Shown here: positions 600-6,556 of the stretch, in pieces
Layout: each line of letters opens with the position of its first letter
Position numbering within the stretch: position 1 is the stretch's first letter
DNA from: a virus
Lineage: Duplodnaviria > Heunggongvirae > Uroviricota > Caudoviricetes
DNA: 8,374 nucleotides
Virus record (IMG/VR): IMGVR_UViG_2690316286_000006
Reading direction: 5' to 3' (one strand)
Notes under the pieces: generated by a model
Databases searched by the model: none
What the model saw: the letters and a program-made list of their open reading frames with translations, nothing else
What the model was told of the DNA's origin: nothing
Program-made: the position numbers and the translations under genes

Positions 600-727
600 G
601 TTCTGTGGGGCGGGGTGGGTTGATGGATACAATCTACAAATTAAAATTTAATTGGTCAATATATTTATTATTAAATTTGTAATTGCGAACGATTGCATTA
701 GTCCCAAAATGGGACTATCATGCAGTT
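600..727. promoter_or_regulatory. AT-rich promoter/operator region upstream of higB
   Basis: AT-rich tract 630-690 between divergently oriented genes. Inverted half-sites TACAAAT (635-641) and ATTTGTA (675-681). 14-mer TTAAATTTGTAATT (671-684) identical to 1913-1926. Perfect inverted repeat GTCCCA-AAA-TGGGAC at 701-715, 13 nt before the higB ATG. No convincing -35/-10 pair could be pinned down by eye. Confidence 0.45.
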
Positions 728-1030
728 ATGAAGATCATCTCAGTTAAAACACTCAGGGATTTTTGGGCGGAGAATCCCGATGCAGAACAACCGCTAAGGG
801 CATGGGTGGATGAGGCAGCAAAAGCTGACTGGAAAAGCCCGGCAGACATTAAGGCACAATACCGAACGGCTAGTATATTGAAAAGCCGGCGTGTGGTATT
901 CAACATAAAAGGTAATCATTACCGTTTAATTGTTGCAATTGCGTATCAGCGAGGATGGGTATTTGTTAAATTCATCGGAAGCCACAAGGAATACGATGCC
1001 ATTGATGCTGATACCATCGAACTGGAGTAA
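728..1030 (+). CDS. higB: type II toxin HigB (RelE/ParE-fold mRNA interferase, YgjN-type), 100 aa
   Basis: Translation MKIISVKTLRDFWAENPD...VVFNIKGNHYRLIVAIAYQRGWVFVKFIGSHKEYD aligns from recall with E. coli HigB (VFN...HKEYD C-terminal motif, N-terminal MxxIxxKxLxD). Toxin-first order with antitoxin 2 nt downstream. The track ORF starts at TTG 683; the ATG at 728 matches the homologue N-terminus. Confidence 0.85.
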   Translation: MKIISVKTLRDFWAENPDAEQPLRAWVDEAAKADWKSPADIKAQYRTASILKSRRVVFNIKGNHYRLIVAIAYQRGWVFVKFIGSHKEYDAIDADTIELE

Positions 1031-1438: not shown

Positions 1439-1831
1439 TCAGGCAGTTTTGTTTTTCTGCCGCAGTAACTCTTCAAGTTTTCGTTTATAGAAATCGCGTT
1501 TTTGCTCCATATCTCGAATGATCTGCTCTGCGTCGCTTTGAGGTAACTCATCTAAAAGCGATATGATTTTTCGTTGCTGTTCTGTAAGTTGCGGTTGGTT
1601 GTCATTAGTGGATACAGCCATCTTATCGCCGAGAGCTTCTTCTTCCATAAAGAACCAATGGACGGGATGTTGTGAGAGCTCTGCTAATTTTTCCAGTTTA
1701 TCCATTCTTGGCATCACGCCTTTCAACCAACCTTGCACGGATTGGGGTTTTACACCAAGACGTCTTCCCAGCTCTGACTGGTTTATATTCAATTCCTGCA
1801 ACACCTGCTGAAGGCGTTTTACAAAGATCAT
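1439..1831 (-). CDS. prophage repressor, XRE/Cro-CI family HTH protein (RacR/CI-like), about 130 aa
   Basis: HTH signature NINQSELGRRLGVKPQSVQGWLKG near the N-terminus; charged helical C-terminal part; no S24 peptidase-like motif evident. Divergent from a Cro-like gene across a 126-bp AT-rich spacer. Start taken as ATG 1829-1831 (minus); the GTG at 1835-1837 is an alternative. Confidence 0.8.
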   Translation of the reverse strand: MIFVKRLQQVLQELNINQSELGRRLGVKPQSVQGWLKGVMPRMDKLEKLAELSQHPVHWFFMEEEALGDKMAVSTNDNQPQLTEQQRKIISLLDELPQSDAEQIIRDMEQKRDFYKRKLEELLRQKNKTA

Positions 1832-1837
1832 CACCAC

Positions 1838-2230: not shown

Positions 2231-2639
2231 ACACATCCGCATGGCGATGAATACCTGGGCGCATCCGGACGGTGAGAAAGTACCGGCTGCAGAGATTACC
2301 AAAGCGTATTTTGAACTGGGAATGACGTTTCCGGAGCTGTACGACGATTCACATCCGGAAGCCCTGGCTCGCAATACTCAGAAAATTTTCCGCTGGGTGG
2401 AGAAAGACACCCCTGATGCAGTTGAAAAAATTCAGGCGTTGTTACCAGCGATCGAAAAGGCAATGCCACCTTTGCTGGTGGCCAGAATGCGCAGCCACAG
2501 TTCAGCTTATTTTCGGGAGCTGGTGGAGACGCGGGAACGACTGGTGAGAGATGCTGATGATTTTGTCGCAGTGGCGATCGCCGGTTTCAACCAGATGAAT
2601 CGTGGTGGCCCGGCGGGAAATGCCGTGGCTGTACATTGA
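2214..2639 (+). CDS. ydaT: YdaT-family protein (toxic early protein of Rac-like prophages), 141 aa
   Basis: Begins MKIRHEHIRMAMN..., matching the N-terminus of E. coli YdaT as I recall it. GGAG SD at 2203-2206; overlaps the ydaS 3' end by 17 nt. The reading frame is confirmed in-window: against the divergent copy at 3540-3857 most differences are synonymous third-position changes. Confidence 0.85.
   Translation: MKIRHEHIRMAMNTWAHPDGEKVPAAEITKAYFELGMTFPELYDDSHPEALARNTQKIFRWVEKDTPDAVEKIQALLPAIEKAMPPLLVARMRSHSSAYFRELVETRERLVRDADDFVAVAIAGFNQMNRGGPAGNAVAVH
2474..2526 (+). other. two Chi octamers (5'-GCTGGTGG-3') 45 bp apart within ydaT
   Basis: Exact GCTGGTGG at 2474-2481 and 2519-2526, same orientation. 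The duplicate block has the second octamer at 4392-4399; the divergent allele keeps only one (CCGCTGGTGGCT, around 3697-3704). Confidence 0.6.
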
Positions 2640-2649
2640 GGAAGCATTA

Positions 2650-3381
2650 ATGAAATCATCGACGCTTGAGAAAAACCAGAAGGTTTTCAGCCCCTTTAAT
2701 AAAAATCTCGGGGGAGTGAAATTCGTAAAGACCATCAACAGAATAACTACCGCAATTTTCGCATGCCTTCTCATATGCCATGAAGGCATGGCTGAGTCTT
2801 CGCGCTTTCCTGGCGCTAAGCATTCTTTCGAGTTCAGCGATATCACGCGGGCTAATTTGCACTATGTTGAGAAGCCCTTTTCTGGCAAGGTTAATTTTTT
2901 GCATCAATTCGGCCGCGATAGGATCTGCGATTGCGTTGAATTCCTTGCGTCTGTCCCTGTTTACTGCCAGCCAATGACCGAAACAGATACCCAACCCAAA
3001 GGTAATCACGGTCCATATGAACGAAATGAGAGCTGGATTCGTATTGAACAAGGTAACAAATTCACTCCAGATAGTATCCATGGTTCTCGCCGATTACTCC
3101 TGGTTCTGCTGGCTGGCGCTGTGATTGTATTTCCGTCAGGGGTTTACTTTGGTCTAAAGGCAGTATGCAGACGTGATTATGCCCGAAGACGTTATACAGG
3201 GAAAGCACCGGTTCTTGGTGTTCTTTCAGTCCTGGTAATCCCGAAGAAAGTGAAATGTCGCAGATGGCAGATCTGGGAGCAGCGTCAATGGTTCCGTGAT
3301 ATGAACCTTAGTCACGGTATTGATATTGCGTACCAGGATACCCGGAACTGGAAAAAACTGGTAGCGGAGCGCTGGTATTAA
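2650..3381 (+). CDS. hypothetical protein, 243 aa (ORF X), in accessory cassette between ydaT and the initiator; coding status uncertain
   Basis: ATG 2650 with GAGGAAG SD 5 nt upstream, 10 nt after the ydaT stop; stop TAA 3379-3381 lies 2 nt before the initiator ATG (operon-like packing). The last 100 codons (3082-3381) lie outside the minus-strand ORF and use CTG-rich Leu codons. Against: W, C and R content is unusually high, and the ORF is in exact antisense register with the 141-aa minus ORF. The track ORF starts at GTG 2602 inside ydaT. Confidence 0.4.
   Translation: MKSSTLEKNQKVFSPFNKNLGGVKFVKTINRITTAIFACLLICHEGMAESSRFPGAKHSFEFSDITRANLHYVEKPFSGKVNFLHQFGRDRICDCVEFLASVPVYCQPMTETDTQPKGNHGPYERNESWIRIEQGNKFTPDSIHGSRRLLLVLLAGAVIVFPSGVYFGLKAVCRRDYARRRYTGKAPVLGVLSVLVIPKKVKCRRWQIWEQRQWFRDMNLSHGIDIAYQDTRNWKKLVAERWY
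2656..3081 (-). CDS. hypothetical membrane-anchored protein, 141 aa (N-terminal TM helix ALISFIWTVITFGLGICFGHWLAV, charged helical C-terminal domain); coding status uncertain
   Basis: ATG at 3079-3081 (minus); stop TGA at 2656-2658, 16 nt from the ydaT stop (convergent). Protein-like layout with one hydrophobic helix followed by amphipathic charged segments. Candidate -10 TACAAT on the minus strand (plus 3124-3129). The SD is weak or distant (AGGAG 15 nt upstream). Frequent AGA/AGG Arg and CTT/CTC Leu codons. Exact antisense register with ORF X. Confidence 0.4.
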   Translation of the reverse strand: MDTIWSEFVTLFNTNPALISFIWTVITFGLGICFGHWLAVNRDRRKEFNAIADPIAAELMQKINLARKGLLNIVQISPRDIAELERMLSARKARRLSHAFMAYEKACENCGSYSVDGLYEFHSPEIFIKGAENLLVFLKRR

Positions 3382-3383
3382 TT

Positions 3384-3529
3384 ATGGCTACTTCATGGCT
3401 CAGATTATGGCATGACATGCCAAATGATCCCAAGTGGCGAACAATTTCCAGGGTGTCAGGGCAGCCAATCGCAACGGTGATGGCGGTTTATGTTCACCTT
3501 CTGGTGAGTGCGTCACGAAATGTCACGAC
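3384..3529 (+). CDS. O-like replication initiator, N-terminal fragment cut by N-gap (MATSWLRLWHDMPNDPKWRTISRVSGQPIATVMAVYVHLLVSASRNVT...)
   Basis: ATG 3384 two nt after the ORF X stop. Identical to 5257-5402. Ends in the first two GTCACG iteron copies (3512-3527) before the gap. Confidence 0.6.
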
Positions 3530-3539
3530 NNNNNNNNNN
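3530..3539. other. assembly gap (10 N)
   Basis: Run of n. Sequence on either side belongs to different genes (initiator 5' part, then ydaT 3' part), so it is a scaffold join, not a small sequencing hole. Confidence 0.95.
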
Positions 3540-4370: not shown

Positions 4371-4381
4371 NNNNNNNNNNN
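4371..4381. other. assembly gap (11 N)
   Basis: Run of n. Joins the initiator mid-gene to the ydaT 3' end, so it is a scaffold join. Confidence 0.95.
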
Positions 4382-4512
4382 ATTTTCGGGAGCTGGTGGA
4401 GACGCGGGAACGACTGGTGAGAGATGCTGATGATTTTGTCGCAGTGGCGATCGCCGGTTTCAACCAGATGAATCGTGGTGGCCCGGCGGGAAATGCCGTG
4501 GCTGTACATTGA
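4382..4512 (+). CDS. ydaT: ydaT 3' fragment, exact duplicate of 2509-2639
   Basis: Identical by eye to the end of the full ydaT gene; start of the redundant block 4382-5402. Confidence 0.6.
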
Positions 4513-4522
4513 GGAAGCATTA

Positions 4523-5254
4523 ATGAAATCATCGACGCTTGAGAAAAACCAGAAGGTTTTCAGCCCCTTTAATAAAAATCTCGGGGGAGTGAAATTCGTA
4601 AAGACCATCAACAGAATAACTACCGCAATTTTCGCATGCCTTCTCATATGCCATGAAGGCATGGCTGAGTCTTCGCGCTTTCCTGGCGCTAAGCATTCTT
4701 TCGAGTTCAGCGATATCACGCGGGCTAATTTGCACTATGTTGAGAAGCCCTTTTCTGGCAAGGTTAATTTTTTGCATCAATTCGGCCGCGATAGGATCTG
4801 CGATTGCGTTGAATTCCTTGCGTCTGTCCCTGTTTACTGCCAGCCAATGACCGAAACAGATACCCAACCCAAAGGTAATCACGGTCCATATGAACGAAAT
4901 GAGAGCTGGATTCGTATTGAACAAGGTAACAAATTCACTCCAGATAGTATCCATGGTTCTCGCCGATTACTCCTGGTTCTGCTGGCTGGCGCTGTGATTG
5001 TATTTCCGTCAGGGGTTTACTTTGGTCTAAAGGCAGTATGCAGACGTGATTATGCCCGAAGACGTTATACAGGGAAAGCACCGGTTCTTGGTGTTCTTTC
5101 AGTCCTGGTAATCCCGAAGAAAGTGAAATGTCGCAGATGGCAGATCTGGGAGCAGCGTCAATGGTTCCGTGATATGAACCTTAGTCACGGTATTGATATT
5201 GCGTACCAGGATACCCGGAACTGGAAAAAACTGGTAGCGGAGCGCTGGTATTAA
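4523..5254 (+). CDS. ORF X, exact duplicate of 2650-3381
   Basis: Offset of +1873 relative to the first copy; the track shows identical translations. Confidence 0.4.
   Translation: MKSSTLEKNQKVFSPFNKNLGGVKFVKTINRITTAIFACLLICHEGMAESSRFPGAKHSFEFSDITRANLHYVEKPFSGKVNFLHQFGRDRICDCVEFLASVPVYCQPMTETDTQPKGNHGPYERNESWIRIEQGNKFTPDSIHGSRRLLLVLLAGAVIVFPSGVYFGLKAVCRRDYARRRYTGKAPVLGVLSVLVIPKKVKCRRWQIWEQRQWFRDMNLSHGIDIAYQDTRNWKKLVAERWY
4529..4954 (-). CDS. 141-aa membrane-anchored hypothetical protein, exact duplicate of 2656-3081
   Basis: Offset of +1873; identical translation in the track. Confidence 0.4.
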   Translation of the reverse strand: MDTIWSEFVTLFNTNPALISFIWTVITFGLGICFGHWLAVNRDRRKEFNAIADPIAAELMQKINLARKGLLNIVQISPRDIAELERMLSARKARRLSHAFMAYEKACENCGSYSVDGLYEFHSPEIFIKGAENLLVFLKRR

Positions 5255-5524: not shown

Positions 5525-5597
5525 NNNNNNNNNNNNNNNNNNNNNNNNNNNNNNNNNNNNNNNNNNNNNNNNNNNNNNNNNNNNNNNNNNNNNNNNN
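5525..5597. other. assembly gap (73 N)
   Basis: Run of n. The last about 78 bp before the gap and the first about 80 bp after it are two variants of the same segment (EDLASALDVTEESIDSILRAMQGRVL versus EDLASALDVTEEVIDSILQTMQGRVL), so the join duplicates sequence. Confidence 0.95.
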
Positions 5598-6243: not shown

Positions 6244-6556
6244 NNNNNNNNNNNNNNNNNNNNNNNNNNNNNNNNNNNNNNNNNNNNNNNNNNNNNNNNN
6301 NNNNNNNNNNNNNNNNNNNNNNNNNNNNNNNNNNNNNNNNNNNNNNNNNNNNNNNNNNNNNNNNNNNNNNNNNNNNNNNNNNNNNNNNNNNNNNNNNNNN
6401 NNNNNNNNNNNNNNNNNNNNNNNNNNNNNNNNNNNNNNNNNNNNNNNNNNNNNNNNNNNNNNNNNNNNNNNNNNNNNNNNNNNNNNNNNNNNNNNNNNNN
6501 NNNNNNNNNNNNNNNNNNNNNNNNNNNNNNNNNNNNNNNNNNNNNNNNNNNNNNNN
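6244..6556. other. assembly gap (313 N)
   Basis: Run of n. The flanks are in different reading frames and the right flank restarts at the GATAAAGATACAGATAAAGAA repeat already seen at 5872-5892, so continuity across the gap is unknown. Confidence 0.95.

Follow-up and report, generated by a model that had tools for sequence, protein, structure and literature searches.

A probable antisense gene pair in exact codon register in the early-right operon of a lambdoid prophage

Organization of the locus

The window analyzed here belongs to an E. coli prophage and is an 8,374-nucleotide stretch of the Caudoviricetes record IMGVR_UViG_2690316286_000006, a scaffold with runs of N at 3530-3539, 4371-4381, 5525-5597 and 6244-6556. 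A plus-strand reading frame, ORF X, is situated in the early-right operon between a YdaT/CII-like gene and an O-like replication gene, and encloses a gene on the minus strand. The features are listed below.

2638-2652, plus strand: Shine-Dalgarno (SD) sequence and ATG of ORF X; GAGGAA overlaps the ydaT stop and is followed by the ATG
2650-3381, plus strand: ORF X, from ATG (2650-2652) to TAA (3379-3381), 243 codons and the stop
2656-3081, minus strand: minus gene, ATG complementary to 3079-3081 and TGA complementary to 2656-2658, 141 codons and the stop
2659-3081, plus strand: plus codons 4-144 of ORF X, where it overlaps the minus gene; stop-free, with amino acids set by the minus gene
3082-3378, plus strand: C-terminal module of ORF X (codons 145-243), outside the overlap
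about 3094-3156, plus strand: transmembrane (TM) helix of the module; after it come a basic loop, a short run of hydrophobic residues and a Trp/Arg-rich tail
about 3259-3378, plus strand: the Trp/Arg-rich tail, RRWQIWEQRQWFRDM...HGI..AY.D..WKKLV
3097-3101, minus strand: SD of the minus gene (AGGAG), 15 nt upstream of its ATG and inside the plus codons with which the TM helix begins
3379-3386, plus strand: TAA of ORF X, 2 nt, and the ATG (3384) of the O-like (DnaT-like) gene, a tight operon spacing
4523-5254, plus strand, and 4529-4954, minus strand: second exact copy of the pair, a duplication in the scaffold and not biology

The complete genome NZ_CP011416 (L001) carries one copy of the pair, in contrast to the two exact copies in the window. 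The flanking families occur in canonical order, namely PF15943 (2.1e-8), PF06254 (7.4e-10), the CII-like phrog_163 (6.9e-45) and the replication initiation family phrog_3729 (1.8e-100). The flanking genes (YdaS, YdaT/CII-like and replication) are those of a lambdoid early-right operon, and their order in RefSeq agrees. The 2-nt spacing between the stop of X and the ATG of the O-like gene is also found in lineages L006, L008, L012 and L015, and an ATGA overlap is present in L014.

An initial annotation, made from the letters of the window, had placed the two ORFs in an identical codon register. The coordinates agree: 2650 equals 3 x 883 + 1 and 2656 equals 3 x 885 + 1, so that the boundaries of ORF X and the minus ORF coincide. 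With triplet boundaries shared, every codon of the minus ORF reads as the exact reverse complement of a single plus codon. The same annotation correctly described an SD and ATG behind ydaT, whose stop (2637-2639) lies 10 nt before the ATG, and a stop of X 2 nt before the next ATG; of the 100 stop-free plus codons that it reported beyond the minus ATG, 99 are counted here. It had also weighed the hydrophobic and charged features of either product as evidence. These are not independent, because antisense complementarity makes them mirror images of each other.

RefSeq annotates ORF X as the hypothetical protein WP_001300539.1, and in both E. coli lineages the plus ORF is the only one that RefSeq/PGAP calls. 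The GenBank/RefSeq entries of phiP27 and several TPA annotations carry the minus-strand ORF only; the phiP27 L13 call, of 223 aa, simply stretches the minus frame upstream past its conserved ATG and SD. Pipelines appear to choose either strand at random, and because they pick one or the other, one real gene would be absent from every record. We also note that the ORF list places the start of ORF X at an in-frame GTG at 2602, upstream of the ATG at 2650.

The minus gene product and its family

The minus product belongs to a family with an RD[RK]RKEFN motif. Its AlphaFold2 (AF2) model has a pLDDT of 91.8 and a pTM of 0.69, and the fold is confidently predicted to consist of an N-terminal TM helix and a four-helix bundle, with the invariant RD[RK]RKEFN motif predicted at the cytoplasmic face. 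The family comprises at least 476 clusters of 120-145 aa, mostly without any plus ORF, which range over Proteobacteria, Bacteroidota-like Balneola, Desulfobacterota and Virgibacillus. Each of the 476 relatives carries the name "hypothetical", and none has a Pfam domain. In Pfam, NCBIfam, PHROGs and PADLOC, the minus product matched only phrog_13469 (unknown function), in a match that falls short of the family threshold (E = 0.016), and the PADLOC defence models matched neither the plus nor the minus product. The minus gene appears to be the older, ancestral member of the pair, from a family that is wide and uncharacterised. As a guess, its product might be a prophage accessory or exclusion-type membrane protein.

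Selected reading frame in the overlap and beyond

Searches at the DNA level retrieved only 7 identical E. coli copies and zero phage records. They offered no diversity, so protein-guided retrieval of homologues was needed. The resulting comparison set comprises about 12 divergent prophage lineages, which are related to one another. The initial annotation had proposed asking in which frame the substitutions of homologues are synonymous, and across these lineages the answer is the minus frame in the overlap and the plus frame beyond it. Stops or frameshifts in one of the two frames, which it had named as an outcome that would leave a single gene, were looked for among the homologues, and the locus was not reduced in this way.

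Differences between the window and L006 over 2659-3081 number 34, 31 and 78 at the three minus codon positions; 48 codon changes are silent in the minus frame alone and 5 in the plus frame alone. The excess of substitutions at minus third positions is observed in 28 of 28 lineage pairs. Over the overlap the window and L006, an Enterobacter homologue, have an amino-acid identity of 66% in the minus frame versus 35% in the plus frame, and generally the plus-frame identity in the overlap is about half of the minus-frame identity. For the minus gene the dN/dS-like ratio dNN/dSN ranges over 0.07-0.35 and its confidence intervals lie below 1, which points to strong purifying selection on the minus product. 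As an internal control, 7 of 8 lineages have stops that close the minus frame on the upstream side of its ATG.

The plus frame in the overlap gives dNN/dNS values of 0.30-1.13, which are indistinguishable from the 0.46-1.02 of a non-coding control frame. Values below 1 were rejected as evidence for the plus frame because the non-coding control gives an equal range, and by this ratio the overlap shows no plus-frame constraint on amino acids above the control baseline. In consequence, plus translation of the overlap is deduced solely from stop avoidance and start signals. The initial annotation had not foreseen that the two frames hold unequal status in the overlap, where the minus frame seems to dictate the residues and the plus frame shows only stop avoidance.

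Beyond the minus ATG the pattern is that of the plus frame. Over 3082-3378, the window and L014 differ at 33, 32 and 64 sites at the three plus codon positions, and 28 changes are synonymous only in the plus frame versus 5 only in the minus frame. The corresponding numbers are 19-28 versus 1-9 in diverged pairs that share this C-terminal variant (type 1), 10 versus 1 in the close pair of the window and L008, and 15-23 versus 0-4 in a second C-terminal variant (type 2) found in Klebsiella, Morganella and Xenorhabdus. With a dNN/dSN of 0.17-0.29, the C-terminal 99 codons of X encode a conserved membrane module under plus-frame purifying selection.

This module also appears to be young and rare. 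Only 12 matches were found among 1.84 billion representatives, 8 of them being proteins of 242-289 aa that carry the module at their C terminus; a metagenome scan for the module gave no match, and no curated family in Pfam, NCBIfam, PHROGs or PADLOC matched the plus product above its family threshold. The AF2 model of ORF X (pLDDT 37.6, from an alignment of only 5 sequences) was set aside as uninformative. Lineage L108 provides a view of the module by itself. A standalone plus gene of 112 aa, with the start GGAGGGG-GTG, is located there between a YdaS-like gene and a replication gene, and on the opposite strand the minus gene is reduced to its SD, ATG and 11 codons. L108 is a natural deletion derivative that retains only the plus module, which shows that the module can stand alone.

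Stop avoidance in the overlap

TTA, CTA and TCA are the complements of the plus-frame stops. Their use in the minus gene was followed in a clade of 20 distinct sequences (11 clusters at 70% identity) from Escherichia, Klebsiella, Enterobacter, Yersinia, Pectobacterium, Morganella and Xenorhabdus. Among the 480 Leu/Ser codons of the minus gene in this clade, one is of these three kinds (0 TTA, 1 CTA, 0 TCA), in contrast to the neighbouring genes, where TTA and CTA make up 23.6% of Leu codons and TCA 25.6% of Ser codons. All three are absent from 19 of the 20 sequences, whose antisense open stretch reaches 215-275 codons. The plus frame is open in these 19 of 20 sequences, or 10 of 11 clusters, versus 0 of 46 distant relatives (Fisher p = 1.2e-15, which has no correction for phylogeny and overstates independence as the lineages are related). 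The 46 relatives, which have no ORF X, carry 1-15 such codons each, with a mean of 5.1. At conserved Leu columns the clade uses three to four different Leu codons, never TTA or CTA, whereas the same columns in relatives without ORF X do contain them.

The probability of an open plus frame was calculated for the given minus protein from Leu/Ser codon usage. It is 3e-4 to 5e-3 per sequence with the usage of neighbouring phage genes and 0.6-3% with that of E. coli K-12. Both frames are open in L003, L006, L007, L008, L011, L012, L014, L015, L016, L018, L019, L064, L065 and L098. The single exception is L053, in which one CTA closes the upstream plus part and the plus ORF begins at an internal ATG downstream. 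The depletion of stops in the plus frame thus exceeds the expectation from synonymous usage and is specific to the clade.

Start signals, promoters and terminators

In the paired lineages examined, a GAGG or GGGAG motif lies 6-9 nt before the ATG or GTG of X and closely follows the stop of the upstream gene, and these signals are found in three contexts: behind ydaT, behind cro and behind an intergenic spacer. No conserved plus start codon or SD is present near the module (after 3082) in the paired lineages, which leaves the SD and ATG at 2650 as the sole conserved plus start. The Met/Val found at plus codon 109 has no SD and is a forced consequence of His36, an invariant residue of the minus protein.

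The minus ATG is preceded by AAAAGGA(G) at 9-15 nt in most paired lineages examined, Klebsiella having only a weaker AGGA, and the spacing from SD to ATG is long, at 12-15 nt in most lineages. This SD is kept as DNA although the plus amino acids encoded there vary (L/V/F, L, L/F/W). Scans of 15 lineages for a sigma-70 promoter or a terminator of the minus gene gave none at a consistent position, and the counts equalled those of shuffled sequence. The TACAAT hexamer of the initial annotation is present 42-47 nt upstream of the minus ATG, but it is not conserved in homologues and does not stand as a signal. The sequence TTGGGA-18-CATAAT at 3433-3404 is no more than a lead for a minus promoter. 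Control of the minus gene by YdaT was rejected, as the YdaT operator motif does not occur near it; one good operator match is located at 2207-2224, at the ydaS/ydaT junction. No Rfam family matched the locus, the one chance-level match (E = 1) lying in ydaT.

Interpretation of the locus

The initial annotation had left three options open, namely a plus gene, a minus gene or both. The evidence selects the last, and both single-gene readings are rejected. The two ORFs are probably a genuine pair of antisense genes that share an exact codon register, with X translated across the older gene. Neither ORF behaves as a shadow, to judge from the integrity of both among diverged homologues and from their own translation signals.

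The minus gene would be an ancestral accessory phage gene for a small inner-membrane protein. ORF X would take its place in an early-right operon of the order cro/YdaS, YdaT/CII-like, X, O-like and P-like, and its functional part would be the C-terminal ~100 residues with the TM helix and the Trp/Arg-rich tail. Ribosomes would begin at the SD and ATG at 2650, cross 143 codons of minus-gene complement and then reach the module. Because they must read across to the module, selection would have purged TTA, CTA and TCA from the minus gene without hindering the optimisation of its protein. Over its N-terminal 60%, the X product may then be passenger sequence, as this part is dictated by the other strand. 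We infer the biochemical roles of both products, as well as purpose and timing: read-through would bring ribosomes to the module and sustain translation of the operon as far as the O gene, and the minus gene would be expressed in the lysogen with pR repressed, the plus gene after induction. The anti-polarity part of this rationale would be weak if the phage has N-type antitermination.

It is conceivable, as a tentative reading, that the 143 overlapped codons are translated only as a "ribosome bridge", with selection acting on translation and not on the peptide. Were this so, ribosomes would be carried across a backwards accessory gene in the operon, and coupling and protection of the early transcript would extend as far as the X module and the replication genes. 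Loss of the embedded gene would then require a rare in-frame deletion of the kind found in L108, and the locus would yield the minus product in the lysogen and the plus product after induction.

A functional N-terminus is an equally tentative possibility. The N-terminal 143 residues of X would then supply a basic N-terminus, a signal-anchor and a periplasmic spacer, and the frame would be kept open for its product. A basic stretch, a hydrophobic segment of 12-15 residues and a small-x-small motif (GMA, VRA, VNA or similar) are indeed present in every lineage, and the plus ORF of L053 starts exactly there with the signal-peptide-like MKNIKPVIASAAAILLSTIIVLPCSAQ. An equal hydropathy is nevertheless obtained in the antisense translation of the 46 relatives without ORF X, which makes it a by-product of the minus sequence; the signal-peptide-like segment was accordingly rejected as independent evidence. 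Some plus-frame dNN/dNS confidence intervals exclude 1, but the non-coding control frame is equally low. L108 has lost the region wholly while keeping the module, and the AF2 confidence is below 50 over residues 1-201.

Two barely overlapping genes, with a short plus gene starting from an internal codon at about 3050-3090 and an untranslated shadow upstream of it, are unlikely. In favour of this reading, the 112-aa form is viable in L108, the overlap displays no plus-frame amino-acid constraint, and an ATG or GTG is always present at plus codon 109. That codon is, however, the one forced by minus His36, and no start or SD is conserved near the module, while the far-upstream SD and ATG are conserved in three genomic contexts. 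Chance openness of 3e-4 to 3e-2 per lineage is also hard to reconcile with 10 of 11 open clusters versus 0 of 46 relatives.

It is highly improbable that only the minus gene codes and that the entire plus ORF is its shadow, as the minus-only calls of phiP27 and the TPA records would have it. Against it stand the purifying selection on the plus frame, seen over 3082-3378 and again in the second C-terminal variant, the standalone plus gene of L108 and the clade-specific stop avoidance, and the L13 call of phiP27 is an upstream prolongation of the minus frame. Least credible of all is that only the plus ORF codes, as called by PGAP, and that the minus ORF is a shadow of its codon usage: the same-register antisense frame is known for long shadow ORFs, but each of the 28 pairs has the minus-frame substitution pattern in the overlap, the minus family is large and mostly without a plus ORF, its AF2 model is confident, and its motifs, start and SD are conserved.

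Comparison with known overlapping genes

The existence of long antisense overlapping genes in bacteria and phages is still a matter of dispute, and most candidates come from expression data in one strain. The present locus would be a clean comparative case, in which the selected frame flips at one codon and the older gene is almost wholly purged of three codons (1 of 480) only in the clade with the partner ORF. Natural controls are at hand in the 46 relatives without the partner, one deletion derivative (L108) and one internal-start lineage (L053). Unlike in the usual picture, the old conserved gene is embedded and the young ORF seems to have grown around it. The locus makes it testable whether a frame is maintained for translation rather than for its product.

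Like an ordinary shadow ORF, the plus frame has residues that drift in the overlap and a hydropathy that mirrors the minus protein. Nothing, however, keeps a shadow ORF open through the turnover of synonymous sites, whereas here 10 of 11 clusters are open after such turnover, the SD and ATG are conserved, and the frame leads into a conserved module. In phage lambda, the 77-nt oop RNA from pO is a leftward, antisense and non-coding transcript that lies between cII and O and has a terminator of its own. The minus gene is similarly a leftward unit between CII-type and O-type genes, and its transcript would enter the 3' end of the CII-type gene. It differs from oop in being a conserved protein gene of 141 codons, for which no Rfam match and no conserved promoter or terminator were found.

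The closest parallels are olg1/tle3 and olg2/PA1383 of Pseudomonas aeruginosa, embedded overlaps of 957 and 1536 nt in frame -1, for which expression of olg1 and olg2 was demonstrated by Ribo-seq and mass spectrometry (PMC8850804). Those pairs and the present one are directly antisense in register with a long overlap (426 nt here), and the evidence is alike in stop depletion against synonymous resampling and in an ORF that is intact only in a restricted clade (PMC8850804). Both would be cases of overprinting, with an older gene and a taxonomically restricted younger one (PMC8850804). The young olg gene is shorter and lies inside a long old "mother" gene (PMC8850804), whereas here the old gene is short and embedded, and the young ORF encloses it and extends 100 codons further. 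The young ORF of the present pair occurs across several Enterobacterales genera, not in one species, and its frame is constrained in amino acids outside the overlap and not detectably inside. The evidence for the present pair comes from sequence comparison, whereas that for olg1 and olg2 also includes expression (PMC8850804).

Antisense overlapping genes have been described in E. coli O157:H7 as well, including ano/ECs2385 in frame -3 (PMC5960689) and three more (PMC9927249). They likewise are reported to be coding ORFs of E. coli antisense to annotated genes and are ignored or inconsistently treated by pipelines (PMC5960689, PMC9927249). The O157:H7 genes are reported to be mostly short, located in chromosomal genes, partly in other frames and mainly supported by expression (PMC5960689, PMC9927249). 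Compared with the O157:H7 genes, the present pair is prophage-borne and has comparative support from about 12 divergent lineages, and which of its members is annotated varies between pipelines.

Locus organization and codon register

The window comes from a lambdoid E. coli prophage, of which it covers the early-right region; its features are as follows.

Features of the window
683-1030, HigB-like toxin gene (type II HigB-family TA pair per RefSeq)
1033-1392, HTH antitoxin (HigA) gene of the same pair
1439-1837, minus strand, cI-like repressor gene
1946-2230, YdaS/Cro-like gene
2214-2639, YdaT/CII-like gene
2650-3381, plus strand, ORF X (ATG at 2650, TAA 3379-3381)
2656-3081, minus strand, minus ORF (ATG complement of 3079-3081, TGA complement of 2656-2658)
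3384 onward, O-like/DnaT-like replication gene

The HigB/HigA pair (683-1392) adjoins the outer side of the cI-like repressor gene. At 2207-2224, where the ydaS-like gene ends and ydaT begins, lies TTGATTCATGAAAATCAG, which has one mismatch to the published YdaT operator TTGATTN6AATCAA; operator OM of CP-933P is located at the ydaS/ydaT junction as well (PMC9986795). The number of matches to this motif in the window is not above chance, and it is the position of the match, rather than the count, that is suggestive.

The initial annotation described the spacing around ORF X correctly, as judged from the window sequence, and the coordinates of the two ORFs bear out its observation of a shared codon register. 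Since the triplet boundaries coincide, each minus codon pairs with a single plus codon, of which it is the reverse complement.

The window sequence is a scaffold interrupted by four N runs (3530-3539, 4371-4381, 5525-5597 and 6244-6556); parts of the O-like gene occur in it as chimeric pieces, and it matches IMG/VR contigs UViG_2713897140_000004 and UViG_2778261154_000010. A second exact copy of the ORF pair (plus 4523-5254, minus 4529-4954) is part of an exact repeat of the ydaT end and ORF X at 4475-5254. The finished genome NZ_CP011416 has one copy of the pair; the duplication is thus an assembly artefact.

Selection in the two frames

Codon alignments of eight lineages (28 pairs) answer the question, posed initially, of which frame carries the silent changes: the minus frame within the overlap (2659-3081) and the plus frame within 3082-3378. 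In the overlap, differences concentrate at the minus third codon position in 28/28 pairs. Between the window and the Enterobacter locus L006, they are distributed 34/31/78 over the minus codon positions; the minus translations are 66% identical and the plus translations 35%, and of the codon changes silent in a single frame, 48 are so in minus and 5 in plus. The pattern reverses in 3082-3378, where comparison with the Pectobacterium locus L014 gives 33/32/64 over the plus positions and 28 changes silent only in plus vs 5 only in minus. X has a second C-terminal variant, present in Klebsiella, Morganella, Xenorhabdus and locus L053, and this follows the plus-frame pattern too. Every codon here is complete in itself in both frames, which makes an OLGenie-style count exact.

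OLGenie-style ratios
Minus gene, overlap: dNN/dSN 0.07-0.35
Plus C-terminus, outside overlap: dNN/dSN 0.17-0.29
Plus frame, inside overlap: dNN/dNS 0.30-1.13
Control, non-coding minus frame of the C-terminal region: dNN/dNS 0.46-1.02

Inside the overlap, dNN/dNS of the plus frame reveals no amino-acid constraint on X beyond the non-coding control frame, and none is claimed.

Maintenance of the open plus frame

Retrieved minus-family genes were divided by HMM score into an enterobacterial prophage clade, whose 20 distinct sequences form 11 clusters at 70% identity, and distant relatives. The codons TTA, CTA and TCA, complements of plus-frame stops, occur 0, 1 and 0 times among the 306 Leu and 174 Ser codons of the clade, and the antisense open stretch is 207-275 codons, whereas the 46 distant relatives have 1-15 such codons each (mean 5.1) and a closed antisense frame. 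In neighbouring phage genes these codons account for ~24% of Leu and ~26% of Ser, from which the probability of an open plus frame is 3e-4 to 5e-3 per gene; with K-12 usage it is 0.6-3%. At conserved Leu columns the clade employs three or four Leu codons, never TTA/CTA, while distant relatives do use them there; synonymous turnover in the clade has occurred. As a control, the minus frame 5' of its own ATG is closed in 7/8 lineages. The sole clade exception is L053, with a single CTA, where the plus ORF begins at an internal ATG right after it.

Start signals

ORF X starts with ATG/GTG preceded by GAGG/GGGAG, right behind the stop of the upstream gene, either ydaT or cro depending on the lineage; in phages of the phiP27 type a cro-like gene and a short spacer precede X. 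Its end lies 2 nt ahead of the ATG of the next gene or overlaps it. After 3082 the plus frame has no conserved start codon, and plus codon 109, an M/V column, is the complement of invariant minus His36. The minus ATG is preceded at 9-15 nt by AAAAGGA(G) in most paired lineages (only a weaker AGGA in Klebsiella), which is conserved as DNA although the plus amino acids encoded by those codons vary.

A candidate leftward promoter (TTGGGA-18 nt-CATAAT with extended TG) is seen on the minus strand at 3404-3433, in the first codons of the O-like gene. This site is not above shuffled expectation, and its position is not conserved in other lineages. Its location corresponds roughly to that of pO, for oop, in lambda. 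The position of the minus gene is similar to that of oop, and no RNA family, oop-type included, matches the locus.

Proposed origin of the pair

The suggestion that both ORFs could be real is supported by frame selection, stop avoidance and start signals, and we consider both to be probable genes. A minus gene alone is rejected by the plus-frame pattern in 3082-3378 and the open plus frame; a plus gene alone is rejected by overlap substitutions that follow the minus frame and by the wide minus family. The minus gene would be ancestral and fully constrained as a protein, and X a younger operon gene. The functional C-terminal module of X would be reached by translation across the minus-gene complement, which would have compelled the minus gene to do without three codons. 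The need to read the plus frame, like the timing of expression of each strand, is something we infer; possible reasons are that no internal start is available, that translation is coupled to the O gene, or that it gives protection from polarity.

In contig L108 (region 1100-1200), a 112-aa gene starting with GGAGGGG-N6-GTG consists of the plus module alone; the module is therefore autonomous as a gene, and X can dispense with its N-terminal stretch of 140 residues. It is placed directly behind the YdaS-like gene and before the replication gene, and the contig has no ydaT. On the opposite strand, only AAAAGGAG-N12-ATG and 11 further codons, MHILWCQFITHG*, are left, a remnant of the minus gene. 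L108 is probably, as the simplest origin, an in-frame deletion derivative.

For X, the AF2 model (pLDDT 37.6, from five sequences) is uninformative. A hydrophobic signal-peptide-like segment at the N-terminus of X also appears when relatives lacking X are translated antisense; it is a by-product of the minus sequence and was rejected as independent evidence.

Distribution of the two families

At the DNA level the segment is present in only 7 copies, all identical, among 5,426 E. coli genomes, and is absent from deposited phages. Protein searches identified homologues of the minus product (80, 66 and 42% identity) and of the plus product (86, 46, 38 and 40%), whose contigs all represent one kind of locus; a scan with the minus alignment across collections of genomes and viruses added 73 loci. 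By profile search the minus family comprises proteins of 120-145 aa in at least 476 clusters, from many phyla, every one named 'hypothetical' and without a Pfam domain. Its genes often occupy prophage accessory positions, e.g. next to Arc/Mnt/Ant in a P22-like prophage. The plus C-terminal module is rare, with 12 matches in 1.84 billion representatives, 8 of them 242-289 aa long with the module at the end. A metagenome scan gave no match, and a viral scan only already-known contigs and L098, which is open in both frames.

The bundle domain of the minus protein has at least three divergent allelic types in the clade. Two Morganella-type viral contigs, L018 and L065, differ at 2/70 codons of the plus C-terminal region and are strongly diverged in the overlapped part, with different alleles of the bundle domain. 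This would imply that recombination swaps the cytoplasmic domain of the embedded gene as a cassette, with the antisense frame staying open.

Relation to known overlapping genes and annotation

The closest known cases are olg1 and olg2 of P. aeruginosa, frame -1 embedded genes (PMC8850804) that resemble the present pair in frame relation, stop depletion and restricted clade, together with antisense genes of EHEC (PMC5960689, PMC9927249). Here, in contrast, the old gene is embedded and the young ORF encloses it, X spans several genera, and its constraint in the overlap is limited to staying open.

RefSeq annotates the plus ORF only, and other records only a minus gene of 140-141 aa; some gene callers give both. 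Records of phiP27 annotate only an over-extended 223-aa minus ORF, L13, because the minus frame is open upstream of the SD/ATG there. In this type (L007, L054-L061 and L088) it runs open far beyond the conserved SD/ATG on the upstream side, with 279-319 codons between stops, through the entire plus C-terminal module, reflecting either chance or a longer isoform.

In viral contig L068, a more distant relative, the antisense of the family gene has three stops and a 154-codon ORF. This ORF lies inside an open stretch of 165 codons, begins like a signal peptide and carries a hydrophobic helix at its C-terminus; it might represent an independent or earlier stage of overprinting.
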